Shown: positions 419 to 37,691 of the stretch, piece after piece
How positions within the stretch are numbered: the first letter of the stretch is position 1
Layout: each line of letters begins with the position of its first letter
Virus record (IMG/VR): IMGVR_UViG_3300018984_000002
Span: 1 to 38,776 of that record
Direction: 5' to 3' (one strand)
Source: a virus
Length of the DNA stretch: 38,776 nucleotides
The notes under the pieces: generated by a model
What the model was told of the DNA's origin: nothing
Seen by the model: the letters and a program-made list of their open reading frames with translations, nothing else
The model's database searches: none
Position numbers and translations under genes: made by a program

Positions 419-502
419 TAAAGAGTCTTTGTCGTATTCAAAGTTAGTACAGCCTAAATTTAGGCATAATTAAGAGTCCGAAATAATAGGGCTTACTAAA
501 TC

Positions 503-706
503 TCAGTTAGGATCTTCACCTATATCTGTTCCATCAGAGTTCCATTCACAATCTCCGTATCCAGGTATATACCCTGTTAAATAATACATACCTACATTAC
601 TTTCATCCCAGCATTTTGACTGGTCTTCTGGTATAGAAACTATTTCTGTGACAATGGCTGTTTTGTTGTTTCTAGTTAAATAATTACCAGGTTTAAATTC
701 TTTCAT
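503..706 (-). CDS. hypothetical phage protein (Y-x-T-R...W...G type), possibly truncated by a TGA
   Basis: 67-aa ORF; the frame continues DLVSPIISDS after the TGA. Confidence 0.6.
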   Translation of the reverse strand: MKEFKPGNYLTRNNKTAIVTEIVSIPEDQSKCWDESNVGMYYLTGYIPGYGDCEWNSDGTDIGEDPN

Positions 707-707
707 C

Positions 708-860
708 TTATTCTTCTTCTGTTTGTGCGTCTTGTATTTCTTCTTGTTTCACAGCATCCATAGTATCTGCCCAATCTGCATAAGTGTAAGCCTTTTCAGG
801 ATTCCCACTCTCTACAGCTTCTGAGGCTTTTTTACGCCAATCATCTGAAGTATTAGTCAT
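708..860 (-). CDS. small acidic hypothetical protein
   Basis: Manual translation MTNTSDDWRKKASEAVESGNPEKAYTYADW... (50 aa) fills the gap between ORFs; AAGG upstream. Confidence 0.6.
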   Translation of the reverse strand: MTNTSDDWRKKASEAVESGNPEKAYTYADWADTMDAVKQEEIQDAQTEEE

Positions 861-876
861 GTGTGCTTTACCTTTA

Positions 877-1245
877 CTAAATTAGCTTCAACTTTTTAAC
901 GTAACTTTCTTTTACATACACAACCATCTTATCCTCAAACAGTTGTTTAACTATTGCAGAGGAAGGAACTTTACCTTTTAGTGGCAGATAGTTTTTACTT
1001 ACTAAATCATTTAACTTAAATACCCTAATGCGTCGATTTGTTTTAGGGCACTTAATCATTTTAGGTACAAGTCCAGTATTACAGTATCGCTCGATTCTTT
1101 GTTTAACTTCAAACTGTTTACACCAAGTAAGTTGAGCATCGTAATACTGAAGAGAAAATAGGGTAAGTGTTTTACGTCCTGCAAACACCTGTATTTCGGA
1201 CAATTCATTGTTTAGTTGATTTTTGACAATGGTACTAAATGACAT
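877..1245 (-). CDS. hypothetical basic protein
   Basis: 122-aa ORF with a clear AAGGAG Shine-Dalgarno upstream. Confidence 0.7.
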   Translation of the reverse strand: MSFSTIVKNQLNNELSEIQVFAGRKTLTLFSLQYYDAQLTWCKQFEVKQRIERYCNTGLVPKMIKCPKTNRRIRVFKLNDLVSKNYLPLKGKVPSSAIVKQLFEDKMVVYVKESYVKKLKLI

Positions 1246-1263
1246 AGTGAACTCCTTAATTAC

Positions 1264-1299
1264 AAAAAAAATAGCTTACTAGATAAACCAGTAAGCTAT
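1264..1299 (-). terminator. intrinsic terminator
   Basis: ATAGCTTACT/AGTAAGCTAT stem followed by a T-run on the minus strand. Confidence 0.7.
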
Positions 1300-1327
1300 G
1301 ACAATCCTTACGAGAAAGTTAAGTTGC

Positions 1328-1831
1328 TTAATCCCAATGCTGAATTAATGATGTGAACAACCTAATCAGAAATGCTTCTTCAACAAACTTGCTACTATTC
1401 TTAGTCTCTTTCAATTCTTGAAGATCAAGAATAATCCCACGCACAGTATTATTCTTTTCAAGGTATTCTTGAAAGGTAAAAGAATTGGTAACAGAATTAT
1501 AACTAAAAAGTGGATTTACAACTACTTCTATTAAATGTTTTCTAGCTGATAATAAATTACTATAAGGACTTGGTGGAGCTATCCATTTTGAACAACCATT
1601 TTCTAAGGGAATAAAATAATTCTCATTAAAAGAATTAACATCATATTCTTCATCATCAAATAAATAAGTTAAGTAATCTTCAGGTTCAACTAAAATACCC
1701 GATGCTTTTCTAAACTCCAAAGATTCGTTTCTAAATACACGAAAATAATCGTTAGTTTTATCTATTTCAAATACACATTTGACATAAATATCACTTTCAC
1801 GTTCTTCGACAATTAATTCAACAATTTGCAT
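1328..1831 (-). CDS. hypothetical protein
   Basis: 167-aa ORF, no motif recognised. Confidence 0.65.
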   Translation of the reverse strand: MQIVELIVEERESDIYVKCVFEIDKTNDYFRVFRNESLEFRKASGILVEPEDYLTYLFDDEEYDVNSFNENYFIPLENGCSKWIAPPSPYSNLLSARKHLIEVVVNPLFSYNSVTNSFTFQEYLEKNNTVRGIILDLQELKETKNSSKFVEEAFLIRLFTSLIQHWD

Positions 1832-2115
1832 AGTAGTTAAATAAACTCTATTAGTGGCTTATACAAAGCCACCATACAATTTACTTAAACAAACAATTTA
1901 AGGTAGTCCGAAACAATAGTGTGTAAGACGAGGTTTACGGTTTTTCTAGGTATACCCTCAAACAAGCACAAACAATCCAACTAAGAAGAAATACGTGCAT
2001 AAGCGGAGCGTAAGCTACCCAACCTATCTGCACAAGAAAAGAAATAACTCCCACACTAATTAGTGCTGTAATCAAATCAATCGCAAGCCAAGTATAGTTC
2101 ATAGTTTTTAATACT

Positions 2116-2322: not shown

Positions 2323-2386
2323 AGTAATTACCTTGCTATTATTTTCGGACTCTCGCGTAATTATCTTATGACTACTAAATTAATTT

Positions 2387-3479: not shown

Positions 3480-4277
3480 TTATTGGTTTATTACTTGACT
3501 ATTTTTTAACAAACTTAAGTAATCAGGATTACCCTGCTTAAAACAAACTACTCTATTTATCTTTTTCTCAAGTATTAGTTGAGTACATAAATAACAAGGA
3601 GTATAACTAATAAATAAATCATCTCCTGGTTTTGAATATTCTAATACGACTTGTTCAGCATGAGGGAAAGCACAACTAGGTTTGTTACTATCGCGTAAAC
3701 CAAAAGTATTATTGACTAAATTATATTCACATCTTTTACAATACTTACCCACATTACTAGCGTTAGACCCACTAGCAACTGGAACACCATCTCTGACTAA
3801 AACTGCCCCTACTTTCTTAGTAATACAAATACTATTGTTTTCGGACTCTAACAATAACTTTTCTATGTCACTTGTATGATAACTAGTGGTTTCAGAATTA
3901 CAAAATTTAACTTTAAAACCATTACTTTCTAATCGATAAGAAAAAGTAGATTCTAAGTTAGTAGTCCTAGGTATACCTTTAGGTCTTGCTGTAATTACTA
4001 ATAGGTTTTCGTCTATATACCCTTTCTCGTATTTGTCTATAGTTAGTTGTTCGATTTGGTATCTAATATTTAATGTAGTTAAAAATTTAACTAAATCTTG
4101 TTCTCTCCAATCATAAGTAAATAGTGGTCGGGTATTACCTTTACGTTGTTTTATACGTTCGTCTGTCCACAATCCTACAACTATCTCAGTTAAGTTATAT
4201 TCTGCAATTACTTTTTGAATATAACTTTTGTGTCCTGGATGCAATACATCAAAACAACCATGAATTAATGCTTTCAT
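3480..4277 (-). CDS. cytidylyltransferase-like (HxGH) + dCMP/cytidine deaminase fusion
   Basis: GCFDVLHPGH and KG..RP motifs N-terminally; C...KVGAVLV, HAE and PCxxC zinc-deaminase motifs C-terminally; ATG start at 4277 preferred. Confidence 0.85.
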   Translation of the reverse strand: MKALIHGCFDVLHPGHKSYIQKVIAEYNLTEIVVGLWTDERIKQRKGNTRPLFTYDWREQDLVKFLTTLNIRYQIEQLTIDKYEKGYIDENLLVITARPKGIPRTTNLESTFSYRLESNGFKVKFCNSETTSYHTSDIEKLLLESENNSICITKKVGAVLVRDGVPVASGSNASNVGKYCKRCEYNLVNNTFGLRDSNKPSCAFPHAEQVVLEYSKPGDDLFISYTPCYLCTQLILEKKINRVVCFKQGNPDYLSLLKNSQVINQ

Positions 4278-4400
4278 ACAAAAACTAAAAAACTTACAAA
4301 TACTTCTCAATTACATCGGCTATTTCTAGAAAAATAGCACCGTTATCCTAATAAATAAAAACAGAAGTATTAACATTCACAGTACAGTCAGAGTACTTAT

Positions 4401-5924: not shown

Positions 5925-5987
5925 CTTGTGGTTATTTAGTGGCTATAGCGTATGTCTTACTTAGAAATAGACCCTTATATTTTCGGA

Positions 5988-6755
5988 CTATTTGTTCTTA
6001 GGCTTCTCAGCCATAGCTACGGCAACTTGTGTAGCGTCTTTATCTACTACTGGTGAAACACTAGCTTCGATAGCTTTAGATTCGCTGTAGCCTGGTAGAG
6101 ACTGGATTCTAGTAGCAATCTTTTTGTGGCTGTCAGATACATAAGCCTTATGGTCACTAAGCTTAGTGTATGTATCCAGAGTCAAACGTAACAACTCATC
6201 TTGACTTAGTGGTGCTAAACCTTCTTTAAGTTGAATGTCCTTATCGCTACCCGACACTTGCGAATCGTTTTTCATTCTGGCAAGTATCTCAATACCAACA
6301 AGTAACCAACTTGAGAACCTTGCACCTAGACACTGTGGGTCTAACAGTTTTTGTACCGCTTTAGGCAATACCACAGTATTGATACAATGCAAGTGATTTT
6401 GTACTACTGTCTCAATACGCTCACCCGCTTCGTTGTAGTGGGCGATTTTGCCCCCCTTGCCTACAGTTTCACTTTTCAAGTGGTGTTGTTCTAGGGATGG
6501 CATAAAGTTCTTGTCAAAGGTAACTGCTACTACTGGCTTGTACTGGGTTTGAGTAATAGCCTTTGTTTTGTATCCTGGTAGATTTTTTTCAGGGGTTAAG
6601 TTGGTAGGAGTACCAAAGGATACCGTAATCCCTAATTGAGGGAAGTCGGAATGAACCTCGATCATGTAGTAATGGTCTTTGTATTTTTCGTTATCCATAC
6701 GTAATGCAACGGGGACAACGATGTTTGTGTCTAGAAAACCAATTGAGTGAGACAT
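5988..6755 (-). CDS. hypothetical protein
   Basis: 255-aa ORF with AAGGA Shine-Dalgarno; no family recognised. Confidence 0.75.
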   Translation of the reverse strand: MSHSIGFLDTNIVVPVALRMDNEKYKDHYYMIEVHSDFPQLGITVSFGTPTNLTPEKNLPGYKTKAITQTQYKPVVAVTFDKNFMPSLEQHHLKSETVGKGGKIAHYNEAGERIETVVQNHLHCINTVVLPKAVQKLLDPQCLGARFSSWLLVGIEILARMKNDSQVSGSDKDIQLKEGLAPLSQDELLRLTLDTYTKLSDHKAYVSDSHKKIATRIQSLPGYSESKAIEASVSPVVDKDATQVAVAMAEKPKNK

Positions 6756-6850
6756 GATAAAAGAGTCCTTTCAGGTAATCCGAAAATAATAGGTGTACTA
6801 CAGTTGGTAAGTAGTTTATACCGTCTTGCTTAGGACAAGGAATTAAAAGC

Positions 6851-9148
6851 TTAATCAGTGCAATCTTTTAGCATTAAACCACCGTTTAATTTAGCCTTAG
6901 TAGGAACACCGTTAATTAGTATTTGTTTGTGTTCACTAAACGGGCTACGCTCTAACATCTGAATAGCATCGTTTAGTGTAATCGCCGTTACTGCTTTACC
7001 ATAAGACATTAAATAACGGTAAACACTATTGCACCATTGTGTAAATGGTTTATCTGTATTGTCGTTATAGTGTGTAAGATTACCGTTATTTAAAACTGCT
7101 AATTCTACACCACCGTAAGTTCTTAGTAATTTAAGCAAAGTCACAGCGTAGTTGTCATTACTTACTAACAAAGTTGGAGTGAAAAGACACGCTAGTTTTT
7201 CTGTAGGTGGATAAGTGTCTAACACACGTTGCGCTATACGTGTTATTTGTTTCTTAGTTAGTGATTCACCATCAGTTAAAACTAAGCGTCCTAAATACTC
7301 AGTTTTATCACGGTCTTTAAAGATGCCTTCTCCAGTAAAACGAGTCAACATTTTAGTGATGTATTTAAGGTCACTTTTATTGCTGATAGGTTTTACATTT
7401 CTGTTAGGCTTAACGCAATCACTAATACGGGTTTTAGTAGTGATGTTGTTTAACCCTAATACAAATTTAGAGTTAAGTAAGTTACCTGGTAAAGACAATA
7501 CCCAGGTATTAGCAACCGCTACAATACGCTCTGGACATTTAGCATTAGGATGTAAAACTACCTTATGCTTAACCGTGTCTCTTTTAGCAATTAAAAGCTT
7601 GCTACCGTAAAGCTCTCCACTAATTAGCTCATTACTTACTTTTAAATCGTGAATTTTAAGTGGTTTACCATCGAGTGTTTTAAGCTCATTAAGAAACGTG
7701 GTAATTGCATTTACATTATCGAGGCTTACTAGATTTAGTTTTTCACTAATCCAGTTAAAGCGTTCTAGTCTTGCTTCACTACCCCCGCGTACCATATCTA
7801 ACGTTAAGTTACGCCATTGTTTATGTGAGAATTCAAGGACTTCTAAATAACCTACATCTTGTAGTAGTCTGCCATTTACTAAGTCATTAGCACTTACATT
7901 ATGAGGAGTTTCTCCAGCTACGTCACCGTGAGGTAATGACCAAAGCCTGACACGGTTGGTTTTGTCTAACTCAAAGCAAAATGTTTTATCGCCGTCTTTA
8001 AAGCTAGGTGAAAAGCCGTTGTGTATTTTTCCTCTTAAGTGGGTGAAACTACGTTGACTTACTTTCTGTTGTGCAATGTCTTTACGACGCTTGTAGGTCT
8101 TTACTTCAGCTACCTGTGCATCGGTTAATGGGTCATCCGTTTTCTTATGGTCAAACAGAAACTTGATTGCTTGAGGGGAAAGCTTATCTATTGCAGGATG
8201 ATTTTCAGGTAAGGCAGATATAAGACTGCAAGGATAGACCTGCATACCATTAACAGATATGGTGTCAATACCCTCTACATTGGCTTTACCGTCTCTGATA
8301 AATGGTTCGCTAAGGAATCTTGCAGCCCTAAATAACACTGATTCCTTGACACTTGGTTGACCTACATTACGTCCTGGACTTTCTGTAGTATCCATAATGG
8401 TTTTGCGGCGATTACCGTAACCATTATTTACTTGCTTTTGTTTTTCGGTACGCTTAATCTTTTGATCATTCACACCTTCAACCACAATGGTCTTTGGTTT
8501 CATCTTGATAGACACAACTGACCTAGAATAATCAAACTTCTTGACATCTGGCAGAATGCTATTCAGTGTCTCTAGAAGTTCGAGTAAGTCACGCTTATCA
8601 TACTTATCTGTGACTGGCTTATATCCCCCGCTAACAGCATGGTCAATGTAATACCATGCAAACAGCTTTGTAGGTGTGACTACTAGCTTGATAGATAGTA
8701 ATGTTTTAGCGACATAGCTTGTTTCAGCGTAGAGATACACTGCCAGTGCTATGTATTCAGCTAAGACAGACTTGAGGATATACGTTGACAAAGGATACTT
8801 GGATGTAGAAGAGACAATATTGGAGTCCGAAAAATAAGTAGTGTCTAGCGGGGGCTTAATTTCTATTTCTACTTCTGGGACAGGGGGTGTAGTAACTTGT
8901 TCCTTTGTCTCCTCTACTATGTCACTGTTAGGTATAACACCAGAGGTAATCTGATTCCACACACTAAAGTCGCCGTCTAGAGAAGGTGTAATAACTACGT
9001 ATTCATTAGCCTTATTGTTTTCGGTCTCTTCTAAAGCAACTAAACTATCAATCATTTGTTGCTTTGTAGACTGCCAAGTTAATGCAGTTAATTGTGCTTC
9101 TTTAACTAATGACCAAAGCTGTGATTTAGATAGTGAAGAGTAATCCAT
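6851..9148 (-). CDS. large hypothetical protein with a possible N-terminal Rho-N/HeH-like helical motif
   Basis: 765-aa ORF; MDYSSLSKSQLWSLVKE...STKQQMIDSL resembles helix-extension-helix nucleic-acid-binding motifs; the rest is unrecognised. Confidence 0.7.
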   Translation of the reverse strand: MDYSSLSKSQLWSLVKEAQLTALTWQSTKQQMIDSLVALEETENNKANEYVVITPSLDGDFSVWNQITSGVIPNSDIVEETKEQVTTPPVPEVEIEIKPPLDTTYFSDSNIVSSTSKYPLSTYILKSVLAEYIALAVYLYAETSYVAKTLLSIKLVVTPTKLFAWYYIDHAVSGGYKPVTDKYDKRDLLELLETLNSILPDVKKFDYSRSVVSIKMKPKTIVVEGVNDQKIKRTEKQKQVNNGYGNRRKTIMDTTESPGRNVGQPSVKESVLFRAARFLSEPFIRDGKANVEGIDTISVNGMQVYPCSLISALPENHPAIDKLSPQAIKFLFDHKKTDDPLTDAQVAEVKTYKRRKDIAQQKVSQRSFTHLRGKIHNGFSPSFKDGDKTFCFELDKTNRVRLWSLPHGDVAGETPHNVSANDLVNGRLLQDVGYLEVLEFSHKQWRNLTLDMVRGGSEARLERFNWISEKLNLVSLDNVNAITTFLNELKTLDGKPLKIHDLKVSNELISGELYGSKLLIAKRDTVKHKVVLHPNAKCPERIVAVANTWVLSLPGNLLNSKFVLGLNNITTKTRISDCVKPNRNVKPISNKSDLKYITKMLTRFTGEGIFKDRDKTEYLGRLVLTDGESLTKKQITRIAQRVLDTYPPTEKLACLFTPTLLVSNDNYAVTLLKLLRTYGGVELAVLNNGNLTHYNDNTDKPFTQWCNSVYRYLMSYGKAVTAITLNDAIQMLERSPFSEHKQILINGVPTKAKLNGGLMLKDCTD

Positions 9149-9895: not shown

Positions 9896-9950
9896 TGTGT
9901 ATCTCCAATAATGGTGGTGTAAGCTTTAGGACTGACTATTATTTCGGACT

Positions 9951-11315: not shown

Positions 11316-12108
11316 GCAACAAACAATAACAATAATGAGTAGTCAACGAATGTTAATGAGTAATAGTAATACCAAAGAGCCTATTATTTCGGTCAGTCCT
11401 AGTCCTGGTGTTTCGCCACCACCAATAAACGTAAATTTGCGAGACAAGATATTTATTGTAGGTAGCCAATCGTTAGGTGTGCTTACGTTACTAATTTTGG
11501 TATGGGTACACAAGTACATACTGCAACCTAGATTAGCCAGTGTAAAACGCACACTGTCCTTACCACTAGAAGTAGATCGTAGTATCAACCAAATGTTGGG
11601 TAATTTGCTTGAAAAGTCCAATGCCAGTAGAGTTATGGTGGCACAATTTCACAACGGACAGAAATATTATTCGGGGTATAGTTACGAGAAACTAACAATG
11701 ACTCACGAAGCAGTAGAAAATGGTGTGTCGGCGTTTGCTCTAACATTGCGAGACATACCGCTTAGTTTTTACTCAGAAGAAATATTGTTGGCTAAGAAAA
11801 ACAAAGAATACAACAAAATCACATTTATCACGCCAGACACGTTGGTCAACAGTACGAGCAAACAACGTATGTTGCGTAATGGTGTCGAGGGTTATTACTG
11901 TTTTATGCTTCAGACTGAAATCGATGGGGAAGTGCGGGACATAGGAGTAATATTTATCCAGTATCTAGACTTACATTGTGTGCGTGAAATAACTTCTGAT
12001 ATGAGCAATTTAATTGCAACTATCGAAAGTTATCTTAGTCCTAACGAAAGTGAAAATAATGTAAGCAAACTGTTTGGCGAATTGTTCGGGGTGTTTAATA
12101 AAAAGTAA
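11302..12108 (+). CDS. single-TM + GAF-like domain protein (putative T4 T-like holin)
   Basis: One TM segment (LGVLTLLILVWV) followed by LLEKSNASRVMVAQFHNG...IGVIFIQY, a GAF-like pattern. Confidence 0.5.
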   Translation: MKTSKQQTITIMSSQRMLMSNSNTKEPIISVSPSPGVSPPPINVNLRDKIFIVGSQSLGVLTLLILVWVHKYILQPRLASVKRTLSLPLEVDRSINQMLGNLLEKSNASRVMVAQFHNGQKYYSGYSYEKLTMTHEAVENGVSAFALTLRDIPLSFYSEEILLAKKNKEYNKITFITPDTLVNSTSKQRMLRNGVEGYYCFMLQTEIDGEVRDIGVIFIQYLDLHCVREITSDMSNLIATIESYLSPNESENNVSKLFGELFGVFNKK

Positions 12109-14793: not shown

Positions 14794-15675
14794 TTATTTT
14801 TTACGTTTTCTTTTGACCCAATTGATTAGGTTGTAAATAGTTTGATTAGGTTCTTTCTGCTGTATTAGTAATGCTATCTGCTTATCCGACTTAGTTATAT
14901 TATCTGCATATATTTTATTTCGGACTCCTTTAGTCCCAGTTTCTATTTGTTGTTCGGCGATATCTGCAAAAACTATCTGATTATTTTTAACTGTAAATTT
15001 GTGAACAGTAGTATCTAAATTATTTAAATTATTTTTTATTTGATAAAGCTTTCTTAGTAAGGTATCTTCTTTTTCTAATGCCCAAATTAGTTGCGGTAAT
15101 TGGTTATAAGTTGAATGACCCCGAATATTGTTAACAGATATTCTTTTGTTAACTAAAGTTTTATTTAAGTAATGGGTACATACTACAGCTATATTAAATT
15201 GTTCTGCAATATCAGCCAATACACACATACCTGGACCAACAGCAACTGTATTCTCATCTACTCCCATATTAAAACCCAATAAACTATCCACAATAATTAA
15301 TTCAGGTGGTCTGGCTTCAATGTCCGAATAAATAGCCTTGATGTCTTCTTTGTTATTGCCATTGATTGTATCGTTAATTGTTTTTGGAATATAATACCGA
15401 CTCATATTAGCTTCTAGATTAACTAGTCGTCTTATCCAGTCGCGTTTGCGGCTTTCTGTCTCTATTAACATTACGTAGCCTTGATCTGTAACGTAATGAT
15501 TGCCAGGTAATAAACTTTTACCTGCCGTAACTGCCAAACTAGCATGAAGCATTAATTCTGTTTTACCAATATCTCCTTCTGCAACAATCATAGATAACTT
15601 TCCTTTAGGAAATAATCCACCAATGTATTGTGTATCATTATCCATATCATTTACATATTCACTCAAATATTTCAT
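14794..15675 (-). CDS. RecA-like/AAA_25 ATPase, RepA-helicase-like (paralogue 2)
   Basis: GGLFPKG...AEGDIGKT Walker A, MLIETE, IIVDS Walker B, THYLNK, RG, KNN motifs. Confidence 0.85.
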   Translation of the reverse strand: MKYLSEYVNDMDNDTQYIGGLFPKGKLSMIVAEGDIGKTELMLHASLAVTAGKSLLPGNHYVTDQGYVMLIETESRKRDWIRRLVNLEANMSRYYIPKTINDTINGNNKEDIKAIYSDIEARPPELIIVDSLLGFNMGVDENTVAVGPGMCVLADIAEQFNIAVVCTHYLNKTLVNKRISVNNIRGHSTYNQLPQLIWALEKEDTLLRKLYQIKNNLNNLDTTVHKFTVKNNQIVFADIAEQQIETGTKGVRNKIYADNITKSDKQIALLIQQKEPNQTIYNLINWVKRKRKK

Positions 15676-16284: not shown

Positions 16285-17202
16285 ATGTATTATTTATCAG
16301 ATATTAGTGAAGCACAGTTTGCAAGAAAAAAAGGATCTAAAGATAAAAGGAAAAGAAAAGGTAAATCGCTACTAAAAGGTGCAGCAATTGGAACATTGGC
16401 GTTAGGAGCTTTAGGGTTAGGTGCTTATGCATTAGCTAAAGGAAAAAGATTACCAATTAAAAATCAACCTATAACTGTTAACTCGCCAATTGACAAAATT
16501 CCTATTACTCCGGAAATGATAAAAGATCAAGAAAAAACAAAAACATATTTAAGACGCTCAAAACTTATGAGCAGAGAATTAAAACAAATGGGTAAGCCTA
16601 ATGTATCTAAAATTCAAACACAAAGAGACAGATTAAATAAAGCATTAAAAAAAGTAAGAAATGATCCAAAATTAAACACTGAAGCTAAAGTAAGAATAGA
16701 AAGTAAAATAAAAAAACGTATTAAGTCTAATCAACAATTACAAAGAACAGCTGCTTTAAATGCTGTTAAAAACAATGCAGATTATAGTTTATTTTTAGGG
16801 GATTATGTAGCACAATTTGCAAGGAAGAAAGGTAGTAAAGATAAAAAGAAAAGACAAAGTAAATTAGGTAAATTCCTTAATGGAGAGTTAAACGCTAAAA
16901 CTGGTAAACGTAATGTCACACTAAGAGAACCTGTTATTAAACGTGCTGCTGTAGGAGCCGGAGTTGGGGCAGCTGGTTTAAGTACTTTAGGTTTAACTAA
17001 AGGAATTGAACTAATAAAACAAGCTCCTCACTTAAATAAACAAGCAGCTAAAAGATTAATAATGGGTAATACCAAATTAGGTTTAATAGCAGGGGGAATA
17101 GTTGGAGGAACACTAGGAGCTGGTTTAGGAGTAGTAAAATATGTGGGTAGAAAAAATACTTTAAAAGATGTTAAGCGCTACGAAATAAAAGCTAAAAAAT
17201 AG
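16285..17202 (+). CDS. basic Gly-zipper protein, leader family (two tandem modules)
   Basis: MYYLSDISEAQF-ARKKGSKDK and an internal ADYSLFLGDYVAQF-ARKKGSKDK. Confidence 0.8.
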   Translation: MYYLSDISEAQFARKKGSKDKRKRKGKSLLKGAAIGTLALGALGLGAYALAKGKRLPIKNQPITVNSPIDKIPITPEMIKDQEKTKTYLRRSKLMSRELKQMGKPNVSKIQTQRDRLNKALKKVRNDPKLNTEAKVRIESKIKKRIKSNQQLQRTAALNAVKNNADYSLFLGDYVAQFARKKGSKDKKKRQSKLGKFLNGELNAKTGKRNVTLREPVIKRAAVGAGVGAAGLSTLGLTKGIELIKQAPHLNKQAAKRLIMGNTKLGLIAGGIVGGTLGAGLGVVKYVGRKNTLKDVKRYEIKAKK

Positions 17203-22596: not shown

Positions 22597-22994
22597 AAAC
22601 CCTATTTATTTCGGACATAGATATATTATTTTCTAGACCTAAAGGAAGCAAAGACAAAACCCCTCGTAAAAAAAGAATCGGGTTAGGTTCAGTGTTGGCA
22701 GGCAGTGCAGTTGCAGGTGGAACTAGAGGTGCTTTGGTTGCACATTTAAAAATGAGAAAAGGATTTAATTTAGTCTTAGCTAATAATGAAGATAATTTTA
22801 AAAAAGCTATTAAGTCAGGAAATCCTCACGCAAATATAATTTATCCAAGTAAAGCCAAATTAAAACAAATTTACATCAAGAAGTTAAGCGGTAGAGCGGG
22901 AAAAAGTGCATTAACTAGTGCAGTATTATCTGGGGCAGGTTACGGAGCATACAACTTAATATCTAAGCATTTAGATAAGAAAAAAACAGAATGA
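22593..22994 (+). CDS. basic Gly-zipper protein, leader family
   Basis: MKTLFISDIDILF-SRPKGSKDKTPRKKR (AT-hook-like). Confidence 0.8.
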   Translation: MKTLFISDIDILFSRPKGSKDKTPRKKRIGLGSVLAGSAVAGGTRGALVAHLKMRKGFNLVLANNEDNFKKAIKSGNPHANIIYPSKAKLKQIYIKKLSGRAGKSALTSAVLSGAGYGAYNLISKHLDKKKTE

Positions 22995-24199
22995 AAACAT
23001 TATTTATTTCAGATATAAACACCAATTTCGCGAGAGAAATAAAAGTTAAATCAAGTATACGCAAAGGAAAGGTTGTTAAAGCACATATTCGTAAAGGAAA
23101 AGATAAGAGATTAATTAGCAATGCCCAAGTTGCTGCTATAGGTAGCTCGGCTTTACTTGGTTTAGGGTTAGGTACTTACGGGATTTTAAAGGCAAGATAT
23201 AACTTAAATATAAAAATATCTGCCAAAGAAGCTTTAGAATTATCTAAAAAAATAAAACCTGCTCAATTATCTACAGCAGAGCTTAATCGTCCGAATATAA
23301 ATTATGCGGTTGCTGGGCTTAATTATGGTGCAGAAGCAAAAAGTAGTAGTCAGCTATCTAAATACATCCACAGCAAAGTAAAGGGACATACTATTGCTAT
23401 TGATACTAGAAGTATGAATAACCTTCCAGATACTCCACCTGGAAATAGTGCTAGACAACTATTTGACTTAACAACAACTGCGGCTAAAAAAGGCATTTTA
23501 AAAGGCTATAATCCAACAGCTAGAGAATTAGCGGCAACTGTCAAAGCCAATATGGATATGTATCCTGATAAAATACAAACTTTGCATGGACACAGTTCTG
23601 GGGGATACGTAACTAATGAAGCTATGCATATCCTAAAACAAATGGGTGTAGACACTAACAAATTAAAACAAGTAACTTATGGGGCAAATAGCCATGGTAT
23701 TTTACCACCAGCTAAAAATTCGCTACACATACTAGATAAAAACGATTGGCAAGCAGGACCATTTAAGTTTCCAGGTGCTGTAATTATTAATAAAAATAAT
23801 AAAAAGAAACCCGGTAAATTTGTGGATAGATATATGTCTGACCACGGAGCTTACCACTACTTATCTAATGATGAAAGTAATAAACTAGTTAAAGACTTTG
23901 TTATTCCTAAAGATTACGTAGCACCTAAACTAATTACAGTAAAACCTAAACCCACAGTAACTGTAAATAGTGAAAAACCTTTAGCAAATGAAATACAGCA
24001 AATAAAGCAAAGTGGTAAGAATCTAAAAGAAATCAAAGCTAAATACGATAAGGCAGCTAGTAACACCAATATCCCAGAAGACAAAAAAGAAGCAGCATTA
24101 AAATCTGCCAAAAAGAAACTAGTTAATGCACAAAATATTTATAACAATAGTAAAAAAGCTGTAAAAGATAAAGTAGATGCAAACCGCAAATCCAAATAA
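22991..24199 (+). CDS. leader-family protein carrying an alpha/beta-hydrolase-like domain
   Basis: MKTLFISDINTNF-AREIKVKSSIRKGK; TM; nucleophile elbow GHSSGG; candidate Asp (DKND) and His (DHG). Confidence 0.7.
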   Translation: MKTLFISDINTNFAREIKVKSSIRKGKVVKAHIRKGKDKRLISNAQVAAIGSSALLGLGLGTYGILKARYNLNIKISAKEALELSKKIKPAQLSTAELNRPNINYAVAGLNYGAEAKSSSQLSKYIHSKVKGHTIAIDTRSMNNLPDTPPGNSARQLFDLTTTAAKKGILKGYNPTARELAATVKANMDMYPDKIQTLHGHSSGGYVTNEAMHILKQMGVDTNKLKQVTYGANSHGILPPAKNSLHILDKNDWQAGPFKFPGAVIINKNNKKKPGKFVDRYMSDHGAYHYLSNDESNKLVKDFVIPKDYVAPKLITVKPKPTVTVNSEKPLANEIQQIKQSGKNLKEIKAKYDKAASNTNIPEDKKEAALKSAKKKLVNAQNIYNNSKKAVKDKVDANRKSK

Positions 24200-24204: not shown

Positions 24205-24433
24205 TTAGTGTATGTATTTAGCTATTGTTGTATTTGTTATTTGCACTATTTGGGTGACACCCAACTTAAGACTATTATTTTCGGACTCCTAAAACATATT
24301 GGCTATAAACATTAGGGTATTTATCTTTAATTTGTTTTGCTAAACCATCTCCCATTACACCTTTTAAATTAACTTGATGTGCAATTAAGCCTTTTGTTAT
24401 GTCTAATAAATCTCCATTTATAACATTAAGCAT
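24205..24433 (-). pseudogene. macrodomain (ADP-ribose-processing) gene remnant
   Basis: MLNVINGDLLDITKGLIAHQVNLKGVMGDGLAKQIKDKYPNVY is a macrodomain N-terminus; stop at 24275, with a macrodomain-like continuation LKLGVTQIVQ in a shifted frame. Confidence 0.75.
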
Positions 24434-24751: not shown

Positions 24752-26011
24752 ATGACTACACGCACAAGTAAAAAAAGAAATATTAATAATACAGTGCCAG
24801 TCACACATTTTGAGGCACAACCATTATCTGCCGAATTTAAGGAAGCAGATGGACATATTCAGACTAGTGCGTTGATATTAGTCGAAGGCGAACATATTGA
24901 CAGTAAACAACGTAAGCATATTTTCTCAGCAGAGAGAATTCAAAAAATAGCAGACAATACAAATCGCTTACTACAAATGGGTACACGAGTACCTTTTTTA
25001 GCTGATCATATTAAGGCTCAAGACAAAACTTATGGTGATTTAGATGGCTCTATCGAAACTCGTGTAATTACACCAGAAGATATTGGAGATTCTAGATACA
25101 ATCATTTAGTAGGAAAATTTGGTGCTTTTGCTAATCAAATAACAATTAAATCCCGGCAAGCCATAGAACAGTACAGAGATAAGCTACTATCAACTATTAG
25201 TCCTGGTATAGATATTGTTTCGGACTGTATTAGAGAAATTAGTGCAACAAGTACACCAGCAATTGTTGGTCTAAGACTATTTAAAGGTCATGATGCTGGA
25301 TTAGCTACATTTGCTTTATCGTTTGACGAACTAGAAAATAGTGACGATCAAGTAGATCAAGTAAAACAGCAATACGACGAACTTACTGAGGATTTGTGGT
25401 TGGTTTTGGCAAGTATTCTTACTGCAACTGACGAAGCACTAAATGGTCAAGATCAAAGTCAATTAATGGAAAAAGCATTAGATGATTTTGAAACTCGACT
25501 GTTAGAAGTATTAGGTGTACAACCTGAAGACGAAGAATCGGAGCAACAACCTACAACACCAGCTCAAGAAGACACCAAAGCTCAACAAAGTGCTGGTATG
25601 CCAAGGACACTATCTCAACGTGGTAGTCAGGCACAATACAGTCTGCCAGAATCAAACCAAGTATTAGCAGCTTTTACTTTGGATGAGATGGAAAAGTTGG
25701 CTGAGTTTGGTATAGGAAGTGCATTTAAAACAGCACGGGCAGCTTTAGGAGGTGCTGCTAAAAAAGTAGCTACTGAAGCTAGCAAAACTAAAAATATGTC
25801 TAAATTAGGTTTTGGTATTTCCAAAGCCAAAGCCTCTCTGTCAGGAAAAGGTAGACTGAAATCTAATCTAGCTGGTATTGGTGGTGCGGCTAAAGCGGCT
25901 TATGGTACTACTGGTGGTAAAATTGCTGCTGGTGGTTTAGGTGTAGCCGCAGTAGGAGGAACAGCCATGGGAGTAAATAAACTACGTAAACCCAAAAGAC
26001 CCAAATTTTAA
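24752..26011 (+). CDS. putative prohead protease with an acidic linker and a basic Gly-rich C-terminal module
   Basis: Position upstream of scaffold and capsid; VPFLADH...ISPGI...EISATSTPAI resembles Mu gpI/HK97-type head proteases. Confidence 0.65.
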   Translation: MTTRTSKKRNINNTVPVTHFEAQPLSAEFKEADGHIQTSALILVEGEHIDSKQRKHIFSAERIQKIADNTNRLLQMGTRVPFLADHIKAQDKTYGDLDGSIETRVITPEDIGDSRYNHLVGKFGAFANQITIKSRQAIEQYRDKLLSTISPGIDIVSDCIREISATSTPAIVGLRLFKGHDAGLATFALSFDELENSDDQVDQVKQQYDELTEDLWLVLASILTATDEALNGQDQSQLMEKALDDFETRLLEVLGVQPEDEESEQQPTTPAQEDTKAQQSAGMPRTLSQRGSQAQYSLPESNQVLAAFTLDEMEKLAEFGIGSAFKTARAALGGAAKKVATEASKTKNMSKLGFGISKAKASLSGKGRLKSNLAGIGGAAKAAYGTTGGKIAAGGLGVAAVGGTAMGVNKLRKPKRPKF

Positions 26012-26930: not shown

Positions 26931-27890
26931 ATGGCAGGTTTACAACAACTACAAAATACTGAAGAGATTACTGATATTCAGTATCACATGGGACTTTACG
27001 AAGAGTTAATTGAGAATCTTGACAATGCTGTTGAAGCTGGAGTTATGGATGAAGCAACAGCTAAAGCTCATAAAGCACAAGCAATTATTGACCTTAATAA
27101 CCGTTTGTTAGAGTCCGAAAATATTGATGAAGAAGAACTACAAGCAATATACGGCGACTCAGAATATTCGCAAGGTGATGAAGGTGTGGCTAATTTTAGT
27201 ATTGGTAATCGTTTTGGGGCTGCATTAATTGAATTAGGCGAACAAGCAGGTTACGACGATATAAAGTCATTGGTGTATGACATAGCCGAACTCACAGAAA
27301 ATGACCCTGAAGACATTGCAGGACTAATTACTGGGGACAGCGAACCGGACGATAATTTAGCCATTTACCTAGCTCGTTGCTTTGAGCTTGACGAAGAATA
27401 TACTACAGATCTTCGTTTGGCAGCTATGGAAGCTCGTGGTGAAACTCTAGAAGATTACGAAGACAGTGATGAAGATGAAGACGAGGAAGACGCCGAATAT
27501 TCTCAAGTTACGGAACTAAATAACCGTATTGCTGAATTTGAGCAAAACCAACAAATTCGTGATGCTTTAAATGAACTAGAACTAAAAGCCAAACAAGTAA
27601 TGCCTCCGAGTGCAGTCAAAGTATTGTTTGGCGATTTTCAGCTTGAGAGCGATCGTGTTGCTGCATTTTCTCGTACAGCAGATCTTAATGGTGTAGGTGT
27701 TGCAGAAGAACTTTATGCAATGCAAAAAACCATTGAATTGTTCGAGAAAAGTGGACTCAACAAACTAGCCATGTTTCAGTCTTATTCTACTGGTACTGCT
27801 ACAGAAGTGACCGACGAAGACGCTGAAATTGAAGCACAAGCAAAACGTAATTTTGAGTTACGTAAAGCCCGTAGTCACAACTTAATTTAA
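26931..27890 (+). CDS. putative capsid scaffolding protein
   Basis: Very acidic and helical, between protease and capsid genes; multiple A-x-F/Y sites; short basic C-terminus. Confidence 0.6.
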   Translation: MAGLQQLQNTEEITDIQYHMGLYEELIENLDNAVEAGVMDEATAKAHKAQAIIDLNNRLLESENIDEEELQAIYGDSEYSQGDEGVANFSIGNRFGAALIELGEQAGYDDIKSLVYDIAELTENDPEDIAGLITGDSEPDDNLAIYLARCFELDEEYTTDLRLAAMEARGETLEDYEDSDEDEDEEDAEYSQVTELNNRIAEFEQNQQIRDALNELELKAKQVMPPSAVKVLFGDFQLESDRVAAFSRTADLNGVGVAEELYAMQKTIELFEKSGLNKLAMFQSYSTGTATEVTDEDAEIEAQAKRNFELRKARSHNLI

Positions 27891-30040: not shown

Positions 30041-31114
30041 ATGATTATTTACGAACATTGCCCGATTCTGTATATTTATGCATTACTCGACCCAATCACA
30101 TCTGAAGTGAGATATGTAGGTCAAACTAAAAATCCACGCAAAAGGTTACTAAGCCATATATCTCTAGCTAGAACAGGACGAGAACGTAATCATAAGGCTT
30201 GTTGGATTAAGGGCTTACTTAGTAAAGAATTAGAGCCTATTCAGAAACTACTGGAAACTTGTGAAATAGAAATAGGACATAATCAAGAAGATTTTTGGAT
30301 TAAGTATTACCAGGATAAAAACCACAGAATACTAAATACAGAGGCTCCTGCAAAAACACCTTGCTTGAATCGCCCTCAAACTGACTCTGAAGTACAGGTT
30401 AACCGAGAACGTCAGTTAAGTCGCAATAGTAAAACTCGTGCAGTTTCTTATCACGGAGTACACATTCATGCTAAGAACTCAAATGTACCTTATCGTGCAT
30501 CCCTTCGTATTAAAACAGTAAGACATCATCTAGGTCAATGGGATAACCCCGAAGAGGCAGCACGAGCCTGGGACAGTGCTATGGCTTATTACTTTCCAGA
30601 CCACAAGATATTTAATTTTCCAGATAGTGTTGTCCCTTTAAGTATAGATGAGATCAAAAAAACTAGAACAGCATTAGTCAATCAAACGTCTCAACATAGG
30701 GGTGTGACTTTAATTAAAAAATCTGGTCTTTGGGCAGTTAGTTGTTCTTTCGATAATAAAAAGACCAAGGTAGGTACTTTTGAAACAGAAGAAGTAGCGG
30801 CTATGTATCGAGATAGCTTGGAATTATACTATAACCCAGATAAGCCTAAGCTTAATTTTCCTGATAAAAGTAATAAAGCACTATCTATTGAGGAAGTCCG
30901 AATAATAAGCAGGCAGCTAAAAGGTTTATCCGACACCCAAACATCTAAATATCCTTATATCTTTTACCAGAAACGAGAAAACAAATGGGCATTTGAAATT
31001 AATAAATATCGTAAGTCTGGGTTCCAAACAGAACTAGAAGCAGCAAGGGCGCTTAACACCTACCTCACTATAAACAAAATAAACAAACCAATACTTAAAC
31101 TACAAACCTCCTAA
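30041..31114 (+). CDS. free-standing GIY-YIG homing endonuclease with three AP2-like domains
   Basis: IYALLDP...RYVGQT..PRKRLLSH; repeats LGQWDNPEEAARAWD, VGTFETEEVAAMYRD, GFQTELEAARALN. Confidence 0.85.
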   Translation: MIIYEHCPILYIYALLDPITSEVRYVGQTKNPRKRLLSHISLARTGRERNHKACWIKGLLSKELEPIQKLLETCEIEIGHNQEDFWIKYYQDKNHRILNTEAPAKTPCLNRPQTDSEVQVNRERQLSRNSKTRAVSYHGVHIHAKNSNVPYRASLRIKTVRHHLGQWDNPEEAARAWDSAMAYYFPDHKIFNFPDSVVPLSIDEIKKTRTALVNQTSQHRGVTLIKKSGLWAVSCSFDNKKTKVGTFETEEVAAMYRDSLELYYNPDKPKLNFPDKSNKALSIEEVRIISRQLKGLSDTQTSKYPYIFYQKRENKWAFEINKYRKSGFQTELEAARALNTYLTINKINKPILKLQTS

Positions 31115-33183: not shown

Positions 33184-33521
33184 CCACACTATTTATTTCG
33201 GACTGCATTACATTTAGTAGAAAACTAGGAAGTAAAAACAAACGAGTAAAATACAAAGGACAAACCTTTGAAATAAGTAGACCAAAATCAGCTACACAAA
33301 AAGGTAAGAAAAAACAAGTAACTGTACGCAACACAAGTACTGGACGAACAAAAACAGTAGCATACGGTGCTAAAGGTTATTCTGATTTTAGAAAAAATAA
33401 AAACGACAAACGTCGAGATAACTATCATGCTAGACACAAAGGTATTAAATTAAAAGATGGTAGTCGAGCTACAGATAATCCATTACAACCCGCATATCAC
33501 TCTTTACGGGATTTATGGTAA
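33180..33521 (+). CDS. leader-family basic protein with a DUF5754-like domain
   Basis: MTTLFISDCITF-SRKLGSKNK; KK..V...V.YGAKGYSDF...D.RR..Y.ARH...P.Y.S...LW. Confidence 0.6.
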   Translation: MTTLFISDCITFSRKLGSKNKRVKYKGQTFEISRPKSATQKGKKKQVTVRNTSTGRTKTVAYGAKGYSDFRKNKNDKRRDNYHARHKGIKLKDGSRATDNPLQPAYHSLRDLW

Positions 33522-33589
33522 GAGTCCGAAATAATAGGGTTTAGGTGTTTATCGTTTAAAATAAAATTAACTATACAATACTAATATTT

Positions 33590-35544: not shown

Positions 35545-35578
35545 TGGTATGCCAAACACTAAAGAAGAATAATAAAAA

Positions 35579-36058
35579 ATGAGTATAGGAATAAGTGTTT
35601 TTGGTATTCCAATTTTTAACCCTATAAATCTTATTTCTACAAACGCAGGCTTTGAACAAGATTTTACGGGTTGGTCACGTTTTTCTGGGGATTATAGTTC
35701 AAATAACCTAGATATTGTAAATAGTCCTGTTCATTCAGGACTTAAAGCATTTAAATTTGGGGGAATATCCCCAAATACATACACTTTTAGAACTATAAAT
35801 AACGTAGCTACAGGCAGTTATACCTTGGGTTGTTGGTATTTAAATAGCAGTCCTTCTGGTAATATTTATATGTATAGAAAAAATAGAACAAATGGGGCAG
35901 ATAGCTTAGTACTACTTAATACATTAAGTACAACATACTTGCAAATAGCTTTTACGTTTTCAACAGATGCTGGAACTTTAGAAATCGGCTTTGGAATAGA
36001 TAACGCCACAAATACTAATCCCGTATACATAGATGATGTTTTTTTGTATAAAAACTAA
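35579..36058 (+). CDS. CBM4/9-like carbohydrate-binding domain protein
   Basis: NLISTNAGFEQDFTGW...HSGLKA...YTLGCW...VYIDDVFL. Confidence 0.75.
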   Translation: MSIGISVFGIPIFNPINLISTNAGFEQDFTGWSRFSGDYSSNNLDIVNSPVHSGLKAFKFGGISPNTYTFRTINNVATGSYTLGCWYLNSSPSGNIYMYRKNRTNGADSLVLLNTLSTTYLQIAFTFSTDAGTLEIGFGIDNATNTNPVYIDDVFLYKN

Positions 36059-36116
36059 TGTTTTTAAATTTTAATATACTTAGTGAAAAAACAATTTCAG
36101 ACCTTAATTTATTTAT

Positions 36117-36509
36117 GTGTATAATGTAAATGCAACCAAGATGATATTTATGAACAAACAACTAGATACAACTAAACCTATTATTCTTACTCGTTCTTTT
36201 CATAATTCTAGAGGTAATTATTACCCCGCTAAACAAACACCTTACTATCCAGGTGAAATTACTACAGATGCTTGGGAATTTCAACACAGTATTCAATACA
36301 CAGAACAAGTAAAAGTAGAGTCCGAAAATAAGGCTTTAGTACCGGAGCCTGATGTTATTATTACTAATAAACCACAAGTTGAAGTTTTTGTAGAGCCAGA
36401 GCCAAAACCAACTATTGATTTAGAAATAACAGAACCAAGTGAAGTTCGGGAATTAACACCGTCTGGTAATAAAACAATTAAAGCCAAAGTAATTAAGCAC
36501 TCTAACTAA
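36117..36509 (+). CDS. hypothetical protein
   Basis: 130-aa ORF with a P/E-rich C-terminal half; start uncertain. Confidence 0.6.
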   Translation: MYNVNATKMIFMNKQLDTTKPIILTRSFHNSRGNYYPAKQTPYYPGEITTDAWEFQHSIQYTEQVKVESENKALVPEPDVIITNKPQVEVFVEPEPKPTIDLEITEPSEVRELTPSGNKTIKAKVIKHSN

Positions 36510-36528
36510 AAACAGATAAACATTAATT

Positions 36529-36552
36529 AAGGGGCTAAATTGGCTCCTTTTT
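36529..36552 (+). terminator. intrinsic terminator
   Basis: AAGGGGCTAA/TTGGCTCCTT stem plus T-run. Confidence 0.55.
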
Positions 36553-36555
36553 ATT

Positions 36556-36939
36556 ATGGATATAAAAGATAGTTACACACCTAAAATAGTGCAACGCTAC
36601 AAACACCTTTTATTTTCGGACTCTACATTACTCAATAATGCAGAAGCACAAATATTTCGTAGTGGAGGTTGCAGTACGCGACTTAAACTACTATCCACAA
36701 ATGGAGTATTAAAACATTGTACTAGTGCAGATTTACATGGAGTTGTTACTAGTGATTATATATGTGAGTTTATTAACAGTAATTTAGATAGTCAAACACT
36801 AAAAGACTATATTACTACTATTAGTAAGCAAGAAAAAACAAATACAGAAATAGATAATATTTTAAATCTAAATACAGTACCTCGTAGTGTTTGGATAATA
36901 GTTAGTTTTTATAAGCAATACATAAATGCAAATTACTAG
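36556..36939 (+). CDS. hypothetical protein
   Basis: 127-aa ORF overlapping the next gene. Confidence 0.6.
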   Translation: MDIKDSYTPKIVQRYKHLLFSDSTLLNNAEAQIFRSGGCSTRLKLLSTNGVLKHCTSADLHGVVTSDYICEFINSNLDSQTLKDYITTISKQEKTNTEIDNILNLNTVPRSVWIIVSFYKQYINANY

Positions 36940-37255
36940 TCGTAAGTTATTCGAGAAATGGAAACGCAATAAAAGTGAATATTTAAGTGTAATTACAGTA
37001 CTACTGCGAGAAAGTAAATACCTTTGTCCTAAGTGTTTAACTAATTTAGATATTTCCACAGCACACTGTTCACATATAGTTAGCTGTAAAACACTAGATA
37101 AATACAAAGCGTTTTGTTTAGCTACTAATATAAATAATCTAACTGTATGTTGTAAGACTTGTAATTTGAAACAAGGTAGTAAAACAGAAACAGATTTAAT
37201 TAGTGAAAAACTCTTAGTACAACTAAAAGAATATAATTTTAGTATCAGTAACTAA
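36926..37255 (+). CDS. HNH/NinG-like endonuclease
   Basis: CPKC...HCSHI...NINNLTVCCKTCNLKQG. Confidence 0.75.
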   Translation: MQITSRKLFEKWKRNKSEYLSVITVLLRESKYLCPKCLTNLDISTAHCSHIVSCKTLDKYKAFCLATNINNLTVCCKTCNLKQGSKTETDLISEKLLVQLKEYNFSISN

Positions 37256-37262
37256 ATATAAT

Positions 37263-37691
37263 ATGCAAACACTATTTATTTCGGACATTCAAACTGCTAG
37301 TTTTGCTAGAAGAAAAGGTAGTAAAGACAAAACTAAACGAAAAGATAGATCAACTATAGGTAGATTAGTGGGAGCGGGTGTTGGTGCTGCTGGAGGAGGA
37401 GCTTTAGCCACAGCAGGTGTTGGTATAGCCGGAATGTATTTAGCTAAAAAAGCTGGTGTAGGTGCTGCGGCTGGTGCTTTAGGAGATTTAAAAGCAGCAA
37501 GTAGATTAGCCATGCTGAAAAAACACCGTAAAGCTATTGTGTTAGGTGGAGCTGCTTTGGGTGCTACAGCTGGTGCTACTGCTAATACAGAACAGTTACA
37601 AGAGGGAAGACGTATTGTTAGTACAGGAAATAGAACTTCACAGGAGCTTCGTGGTTTTCTGTCGCTTGGAAAACGATATGGGGTACTGTAG
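37263..37691 (+). CDS. basic Gly-zipper protein, leader family
   Basis: MQTLFISDIQTASF-ARRKGSKDKTKRK; Gly/Ala helices. Confidence 0.8.
   Translation: MQTLFISDIQTASFARRKGSKDKTKRKDRSTIGRLVGAGVGAAGGGALATAGVGIAGMYLAKKAGVGAAAGALGDLKAASRLAMLKKHRKAIVLGGAALGATAGATANTEQLQEGRRIVSTGNRTSQELRGFLSLGKRYGVL

Follow-up and report, generated by a model that had tools for sequence, protein, structure and literature searches.

What reads a short DNA word that a virus repeats, exactly and on both strands, through its genes and between them? The question is raised by a window of 38,776 nucleotides, bases 1–38776 of the single 127,110-bp virus record IMGVR_UViG_3300018984_000002 (33.4% G+C; G000 below), in which the octamer TTTCGGAC, or GTCCGAAA when read from the opposite strand, recurs as the core of a longer conserved word. 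A sequence-only reading of the window had taken this word for a genome-wide binding or recognition mark. Our analysis supports that view: the word is a signal in the DNA itself, confined to one clade of cyanophage-like viruses, it is present about once per 2.2–2.7 kb per strand, and it is kept by selection, being maintained in relatives whose proteins are only ~51% identical. Its reader is very probably some direction-reading viral DNA enzyme. Among such enzymes we favor, tentatively and at a probability of roughly 30%, the T7-type primase-helicase replisome of the phage itself, for which the word would be a preferred start or loading signal.

A word private to one viral clade

The window contains 22 exact copies of the TTTCGGAC core, 14 on the plus strand and 8 on the minus strand, and every position listed previously was borne out. 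The six near-matches listed with them are all one-mismatch cores with correct flanks. Dinucleotide-preserving shuffles of the window yielded a mean of 0.43 copies and a maximum of 3, in line with the earlier estimate of less than one chance copy. Across the whole genome there are 85 exact copies (47 plus, 38 minus), about one per 1.5 kb, where ~1.6 are expected. A position matrix built from all 85 gives the 17-nt consensus C-Y-T-W-T-T-A-TTTCGGAC-T-C; the consensus as first written had one T too many. The word is asymmetric, without dyad symmetry, and its information profile peaks in the 8-mer, tapers off toward the 5′ side and stops sharply two bases past the 3′ end of the core. Each single-mismatch variant of the core has at most 6 copies genome-wide, of the genome's 110 CGGAC pentamers 85 sit in the word, and ~17 decayed or weak one-mismatch copies with flanks are found genome-wide. 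One exact 17-mer form occurs four times in G000, and a −10-like TATTAT is present in 38 of the 85 copies. In the literature, the raw 8-mer was found in primers only.

Protein coding does not account for this abundance. When synonymous codons were permuted with the proteins kept, the genes of the genome gave 1.74 ± 1.37 copies (maximum 7 in 300 shuffles) against the 55 present, and those of the window gave 0.58 ± 0.77 against 14. The genic copies, 25 sense and 30 antisense, use all frames; the other 30 of the 85 are intergenic, an approximately 5-fold enrichment in DNA that makes up 7% of the genome. The enrichment thus survives a codon-aware background, and the word lies in both orientations, between genes and within them in several frames, in the genome as it had been described in the window. 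These data support the earlier proposal that the constraint is on the DNA and not on the protein. Density is even across the early, structural and replication modules. Five structural-module genes start with MxTLFISD and carry the word in frame, at codons 6–8, in a common N-terminal leader (MxTLFISD..F(A/S)RK.G; window 22593–22994, 33180–33521 and 37263–37691, and genome 39538 and ~40244); this leader accounts for 5 of the 85 copies, and two of its sites are conserved in the relative G001 described below.

A word of this density might be a by-product of mutation or repair, such as the methylase-linked very-short-patch repair invoked for the highly iterated palindrome HIP1 (GCGATCGC), or it might be a selfish mini-repeat. 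HIP1-type words do reach a similar density: HIP1 occurs 65 times in 148 kb of a distant phage, G005 (IMGVR_UViG_3300035686_000003), and 20 times in 24 kb of another, L262, that is, at 0.44–0.84 per kb, and in G005 it is somewhat evenly spaced (coefficient of variation (CV) 0.78, P = 0.02). However, searches of G000 with models of C5, N4/N6 and Dam-type methyltransferases (PF00145, PF01555, PF02086) gave no hit, the one-mismatch neighbors of the core are not depleted below background, the flanks beyond 17 nt are unrelated, and drive of this kind does not predict the strand-wise evenness described below. We consider such an origin very unlikely. A mobile mini-element is ruled out: conservation stops at ~19 nt, the loops of paired copies differ, and the outer flanks are unrelated.

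Relatives were sought by a pattern scan of IMG/VR, which returned two true ones, G001 and G002; a third, L261, was reached via its DnaE (71% identical). G002, a fragment of 27.6 kb that matches the window region at 96% identity, carries 18 copies of the word. G001 is a 111-kb contig of 38% G+C, of which 24 kb can be aligned to G000 as nucleotides, at 69% identity; 85 of 196 proteins are shared, at a mean identity of 51%. It contains 101 copies (49 plus, 52 minus) against 6 of a reversed control word, with the flanks and sharp core seen in G000, and each of its 11 tight pairs is ordered GTCCGAAA...TTTCGGAC. The 23.3 kb of L261 contain 22 copies, 11 per strand, with matching flanks and pairs. 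The remaining matches of the scan, G003, G004 and a 20%-GC “GVMAG” repeat, arose by chance or are unrelated; in the contig of 20% G+C binned as a giant virus (L067/L044, IMGVR_UViG_GVMAG-S-3300012954-83_000001), an unrelated dispersed repeat of ~38 nt contains the 15-mer of the scan. Nucleotide comparison to cultured phages gave no match for G000.

Part of the orthologous positions are conserved among these genomes. Between G000 and G001, 4 of 10 and 5 of 18 positions are kept; between G000 and L261, 1 of 5 each way; and between L261 and G001, 7 of 8 at ~69% nucleotide identity. Because a neutral 8-mer would survive at that identity at only ~0.05 per site, individual sites appear to be under purifying selection, with turnover while density and spacing persist. 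Positional conservation, which the sequence-only reading had expected in relatives of a genuine mark, thus holds for some positions and gives way to turnover at others. The comparison of G000 with the 96%-identical G002 yielded 6 differences in 324 motif positions against a background of 3.0%, too few for a test of selection.

The DnaE of G000 is closest to those of filamentous cyanobacteria (~40% identity), and among cultured phages its primase and helicase find matches only in Pseudanabaena phages. In 185,579 species genomes (one per species, GTDB) the 17-mer gave 25 single hits and no enriched genome, and in 401 genomes drawn evenly from Cyanobacteriota the 8-mer was nowhere near phage density, peaking at ~300 copies per 5 Mb. 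Composition explains the one outlier, G169, which has 46 copies where a third-order Markov model predicts 33 and whose flanks are unconserved. A host uptake, Chi or HIP1-like word is therefore rejected as far as testable, the sampled genomes being indirect evidence on the host itself; a host word of Chi or HIP1 type, one of the options raised from the window, is disfavored accordingly. A self-mark, another of those options, is viable as one that is private to the phage and read by a phage enzyme; no sampled cyanobacterial or other bacterial genome is enriched for the word. Distant phages with a related DnaE (49–62% identity in G005 and L262) but a DnaB-type helicase (G005, L262–L264) are without the word.

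A separate feature of these genomes is the loss of palindromes. GGCC, expected 72 times in G000 and 102 times in G001, is missing from the former and found once in the latter; other palindromes are purged as well (observed/expected: TTCGAA 0/25, ACATGT 0/30, CYCGRG 0/13, GGWCC 21/69), and GGATCC, ACCGGT, TGGCCA, GAGCTC, GCATGC and TGCGCA are all at 0. The absence of the neighbor word TTTCGAAC is explained by this purge of restriction-type palindromes. Avoidance of CGATCG is strong against an estimate from base composition but weak under a Markov null, and we do not count it. On these counts, loss on such a scale points to a host with many restriction systems.

Spacing, orientation and hairpin pairs

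Copies on the same strand are regularly spaced. Their gaps have a CV of 0.61 on both strands of G000, versus 0.97 for random placement (P = 1e-4 and 4e-4), and of 0.59–0.60 in G001, again versus 0.97. In the two genomes the same-strand gaps have a mean of 2.2–3.3 kb, a minimum of 275–503 bp and a maximum of 5.3–8.4 kb; the smallest in G000 are 503 and 423 bp. Regularity remained significant against a null with 400-bp hard-core exclusion (P about 1e-3). It also depends on which strand each copy occupies: permutation of strand labels over the real positions gave P = 5e-5 in G000 and < 5e-5 in G001, and the dependence persisted for unpaired copies only (P = 0.026 and < 5e-5). Successive copies alternate between strands 57 times against 42 expected in G000, and 73 against 50 in G001. 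When both strands are pooled the loci are also even (CV 0.71 and 0.68). Because the same-strand spacing is regular and dependent on strand labels, we infer a reader whose action is confined to one strand or one direction.

This dependence bears on a structural role, in which the copies would be sites for an abundant double-strand DNA-binding protein that organizes, condenses or regulates the genome. Candidates are the HU/IHF-like protein (17280–17675), the XRE protein (24433–24678) and a packaged basic protein. An asymmetric site of 17–19 bp is typical of a protein footprint, proteins of IHF type read asymmetric sites, the HU-like and XRE genes are kept in G001 (43% and 53% identity), and the pooled loci are even. 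An orientation-blind binder would not, however, make regularity and alternation depend on strand labels, a dependence seen among the unpaired copies as well, and it does not predict close opposite-strand pairs. The word is also non-palindromic, unlike a dimeric XRE operator, and its density is uniform over the modules. We regard such a binder as improbable, and the strand-label dependence argues in particular against the nucleoid HU site that had been suggested from the window and against a dimeric operator.

The same pattern would suit a Chi-like polar signal, at which a helicase-nuclease or recombination machine that moves along the DNA from one side halts degradation or initiates recombination. 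A signal of this kind would be of use to a phage with a host rich in restriction systems and with DNA ends that may be permuted. Like the Chi sites of RecBCD and AddAB, which are exact, non-palindromic, orientation-dependent 5–8-mers over-represented genome-wide, the word has an exact core, and equal orientations with each orientation evenly spaced are what protection from ends anywhere would call for. The purge of palindromes, GGCC above all, implies that breaks are a real threat, and the phage encodes an exonuclease and a Sak4-type annealing protein. Chi, however, is a host word with a replication-oriented skew and should be abundant in the host if the host reads it, whereas the word here is strand-balanced and enriched in none of the 401 cyanobacterial genomes (at most ~300 copies, the one outlier being compositional). 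In addition, among cyanobacteria with larger genomes recBCD has a patchy distribution (PMC5101192). The Pfam searches, five models with those for methyltransferases counted in, detected no UvrD- or RecD-type helicase in G000, no cognate helicase-nuclease was found in the phage, and 17 conserved positions with a long flank are many for Chi. A signal of this type is unlikely.

Not all copies stand alone. G000 has eight tight opposite-strand pairs, 26–50 bp apart and all ordered GTCCGAAA...TTTCGGAC; in the reverse order, no pair is closer than 308 bp. The eight are found between genes or at the extreme ends of short called open reading frames (ORFs), and single copies make up ~80% of the total. 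Folded as RNA, the tight pairs reach −13 to −24 kcal/mol (z −3 to −6), and their tails are U-rich, mostly without canonical U tracts. The pair in the window gives a hairpin whichever strand is read (−23.0 and −24.1 kcal/mol, z −4.4 and −4.8) and is likely a bidirectional terminator. In Neisseria and Haemophilus, inverted copies of uptake sequences have been co-opted as terminators, and the folding and location of the pairs suggest that they are likewise word copies co-opted as hairpin terminators at gene ends.

Such hairpins, together with the ~5-fold intergenic enrichment and the TATTAT in 38 of 85 copies, could be taken to mean that the word as a whole acts in transcription or at the RNA level, as a promoter, terminator or stoperator-like block, or that it is a terminase or packaging site. 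The single copies, however, show no orientation bias. In a 49-kb block of 88 co-directional minus-strand genes, 20 copies are on the plus strand and 15 on the minus strand, and the word is for this reason not tied to transcription. Stoperators are oriented with transcription. The 13-bp asymmetric repressor sites of this kind in Cluster A mycobacteriophages resemble the word in occurring by the dozen in genes and intergenic DNA, and differ from it in that the word is not oriented by transcription, with 25 sense against 30 antisense copies. A promoter or stoperator is therefore rejected, and packaging, which translocates DNA in one direction, needs no second orientation. The packaging or ejection signal raised from the window found neither support nor refutation. 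We consider this whole group of explanations highly improbable.

A possible priming or loading signal

The replication genes of the phage include a plausible one-direction reader. The primase P0002 (genome 84713–85546) is a stand-alone protein with a zinc ribbon and a TOPRIM domain. Its AlphaFold2 (AF2) model (mean predicted local distance difference test score, pLDDT, 94) matched T7 gp4 primase (1NUI), T7 replisome chains, Twinkle and DnaG cores in Foldseek with E values of 2e-6 to 6e-4; a search of PDB at the sequence level gave no hit. Its zinc cysteines, EGEK and DxD do not vary among 60 homologues. The gene adjoins that of an AAA_25 helicase, P0001, whose C-terminal segment (residues ~385–440) resembles a winged helix by eye, and the pair is kept in all three word-bearing lineages (50% and 69% identity). 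These two proteins would use the word as a priming or loading site, and each strand would then carry priming sites at intervals on the scale of Okazaki fragments, whatever the direction of the fork.

Read on its complementary strand, the word is 5′-(A)GAGTC followed by CGAAATAAWARGG, that is, a GTC, the trinucleotide (with its cryptic C) at which T7 primase starts, then an A/T-rich 3′ flank, then a TA/AA-RGG element. GTC stands at the start of the reverse-complement core in all 85 copies, which describes its presence in the sequence and not its use. The 3′ flank, CGAAATAA, is A/T at 6 of 8 positions and is followed by W-A and then by RGG. According to a 2026 study (PMC12839067), which GTC sites T7 primase uses is governed by the 8 nt on their 3′ side, which are A/T-rich, together with the dinucleotide at flank positions 9–10 (TA, TG, GA or GG); usable sites are reported 1–6 kb apart and T7 Okazaki fragments at ~1–6 kb. 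We rank priming or loading first because the GTC, the A/T-rich flank and the dinucleotide at positions 9–10 (TA/AA here) resemble T7 primase sites with their A/T-rich flank and “−10 element” (PMC12839067, PMC6136900), because the intervals form a kilobase-scale series on each strand, and because the primase itself has the T7/DnaG fold.

Several points weigh against this reading. The flank is like that of the T7 model yet far more fixed than the model requires; T7 cores are degenerate and 3–5 nt long, and here 8 positions are invariant and 9 more are biased. The consensus 5′ of GTC is (A)-G-A, which does not match the (G/T)(G/T) of T7, and the commonest decayed variant, TTTCGGTC, would turn GTC into GAC. 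We know of no primase with an exact 8-mer requirement, that of T7 being 3 nt plus context. Two phages with homologous primases, L267 (primase and helicase 39% and 36% identical) and G005 (primase 30%), have no dispersed private word; the only repeats they offered were one in tandem and one that is clustered and operator-like. The co-occurrence of the word with the primase-helicase pair could be plain shared ancestry, ~85 genes being common to the genomes. Any one passage of a fork would leave half of the sites unused, and the tight pairs would fold in a single-stranded template.

A stronger form of the priming reading is that of a private replication-start code. The primase-helicase would initiate essentially only at the 17-nt word, every 2–3 kb per strand, the replisome would be confined to phage DNA, and sister clades would use dialect words, each read by a diverged form of the module. 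We regard this form as doubtful. One proposed dialect is GTAAGAAAA; another was checked in part in the cultured Pseudanabaena phage PA-SR01 (MT234670.1; L268–L270), which has a homologous primase-helicase pair at 108.4–111.0 kb (~25% identity). There, CAG-A(4–6)-G(AA) occurs 92 times in 137 kb (47 plus, 45 minus); it is fuzzier than the word of G000 and regularly spaced on one strand only. This purine-run word may be a dialect of the same system.

DnaE and the Rha regulator were also considered as readers. In the module of split primase, AAA_25 helicase and polymerase (genome 79721–85546 in G000, 7468–13288 in L261, and 78073–82656, L139/L140, in G001), the polymerase is swapped within the clade, being a DnaE in G000 and L261 and a family-A polymerase in G001. 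DnaE is rejected as the reader, since G001 has the family-A enzyme there yet keeps the word. The Rha regulator is unlikely; it is present in L261 and G001 and was not detected in G000. Two more small AAA_25 (RepA/RecA-like) ATPase paralogues lie at window 14794–15675(−) and genome 46722–47618(−), and both match one gene of G001. In G005, clusters at 28.4, 66.5, 84.5 and 127.9 kb consist of a ~20-nt repeat built on GACCGGATCAAATTG and resemble an operator or iteron array more than a dispersed word.

A one-strand act is also what a nickase performs, and in the main rival reading the copies would be strand-specific nick sites, with a phage endonuclease cutting one strand per word. The candidate enzyme is a GIY-YIG + AP2 nuclease (30041–31114) whose gene is kept beside the capsid gene in G000, G001 and G002 and is missing in G005. 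In plants, AP2/ERF domains recognize short GC cores, CCGAC among them, and a strand-specific act suits the strand-wise spacing. A precedent exists in the 9-nt WACTRTGAC, which is ~13-fold enriched in 61 Pseudomonas phages with little nucleotide identity and has 88% of its copies in genes (PMC11780129). The nick words of tf/Rembedalsseter (WACTRTGAC), of phiKMV-like phages and of T5 share with the word here that they are clade-specific, asymmetric, at least ~9 nt long, conserved across little nucleotide identity and mostly genic (PMC11780129). They differ in being strongly strand-biased and confined to one region, at ~9–13 copies per 45 kb or ~0.2–0.3 per kb (PMC11780129), about three times sparser than the word here, which has 85–101 copies, balanced between strands (47/38 and 49/52), even, genome-wide at 0.7–0.9 per kb and in part in hairpin pairs. 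Nicks at opposite-strand pairs 26–50 bp apart would come near double-strand breaks. The nuclease is 39% identical between G000 and G001, under the genome mean of 51%, which one would not expect of a protein that reads an invariant word. We hold nicking to be possible but not probable.

A second GIY-YIG + AP2 endonuclease gene is found at window 37749–38747. The position of the first directly after the major capsid gene in three genomes is an unusually stable synteny for a homing-type nuclease.

Copies in the window and comparison with known words

The copies in the window and the features that accompany them are collected in Table 1. A Mu-type portal gene (PF06074) lies at genome 72387–73736(+), ~45 kb from the window's terminase, protease and capsid genes, so that the head genes are in two distant regions.

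Table 1. Positions of the word, its near-copies, the inverted pair and the candidate endonuclease in the window.
Feature	Position	Strand	Context
Exact copy	476..483	−	intergenic, between two minus-strand genes
Exact copy	1194..1201	+	antisense within ORF 877–1245(−)
Exact copy	1906..1913	−	intergenic
Exact copy	2343..2350	+	intergenic; opposed to direction of flanking genes
Exact copy	3839..3846	+	antisense within ORF 3480–4310(−)
Exact copy	5981..5988	+	intergenic; abuts stop of ORF 5988–6755(−)
Exact copy	8825..8832	−	sense within ORF 6851–9148(−)
Exact copy	9942..9949	+	between small minus-strand ORFs
Exact copy	14918..14925	+	antisense within AAA_25 ATPase gene 14794–15675(−)
Exact copy	19356..19363	+	sense within ORF 17715–21005(+)
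Exact copy	19904..19911	−	antisense within ORF 17715–21005(+); position kept in G001
Exact copy	22609..22616	+	in frame, codons 6–8 of ORF 22593–22994 (MKTLFISD leader); position kept in G001
Exact copy	24279..24286	+	antisense, 3′ end of ORF 24275–24433(−)
Exact copy	25218..25225	+	sense within ORF 24752–26011(+); position kept in G001
Exact copy	27113..27120	−	antisense within ORF 26931–27890(+); absent at orthologous G001 site
Exact copy	33196..33203	+	in frame, codons 6–8 of ORF 33180–33521 (MTTLFISD leader)
Exact copy	33524..33531	−	intergenic, right after stop of ORF 33180–33521
Exact copy	36320..36327	−	antisense within ORF 36117–36509(+)
Exact copy	36614..36621	+	sense within ORF 36556–36939(+)
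Exact copy	37279..37286	+	in frame, codons 6–8 of ORF 37263–37691 (MQTLFISD leader); position kept in G001
Tight inverted pair	17202..17259 (GTCCGAAA 17202–17209, TTTCGGAC 17252–17259)	both	between convergent gene 16285–17202(+) and HU-like gene 17280–17675(−)
Near-copy TTTCGGAT	6778..6785	−	correct 5′ flank; probably decayed or weak
Near-copy TTTCGGTC	9019..9026	+	correct flank
Near-copy TTTCGGTC	11387..11394	+	correct flank
Near-copy ATTCGGAC	15322..15329	−	correct flank
Near-copy ATTCGGAC	23289..23296	−	one-mismatch core
Near-copy ATTCGGAC	30896..30903	−	correct flank
GIY-YIG + AP2-domain endonuclease	30041..31114	+	beside capsid gene in G000, G001 and G002; candidate for nicking only

Chi, the DNA uptake sequences (DUS) of Neisseria, the uptake signal sequences (USS) of Pasteurellaceae, the FtsK-orienting polar sequences (KOPS) and HIP1 are all iterated words, each of which points to a machine that handles DNA; HIP1 is unresolved after 30 years. 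In form the word comes close to DUS and USS, which have exact short cores with biased flanks, occur at ~1 per kb in both orientations and in genes in several frames, are evenly spaced, and form inverted pairs at terminators. It shares their two orientations, even spacing and inverted hairpin pairs. DUS and USS are, however, chromosomal words of competent bacteria read by uptake machinery, whereas the word is confined to a phage clade, with a strand-specific regularity, and no chromosomal counterpart in a competent host appeared in the genomes scanned. HIP1 is likewise an octamer core at ~0.5–1 per kb, quasi-regular and in a cyanobacterial and cyanophage setting, but it is palindromic, host-wide and tied to CGATCG methylases, and the word is asymmetric and phage-private, with no methylase found (PMC5861425, PMC13756078).

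That the word is invariant, asymmetric, private to the phage, indifferent to the proteins it crosses and spaced strand by strand narrows its reader to a phage-encoded enzyme whose action is tied to one strand or one direction. In practice the word can also serve to recognize members of this clade in metagenomes. If the reader is a nickase, the known phenomenon of phage nicks would extend to a balanced, genome-wide form. With the cultured PA-SR01 and its sister word, the question can be taken to the bench. Should the replisome be the reader, the word would be a primase or helicase-loading code of unprecedented length, and a means by which a virus limits replication to its own DNA.

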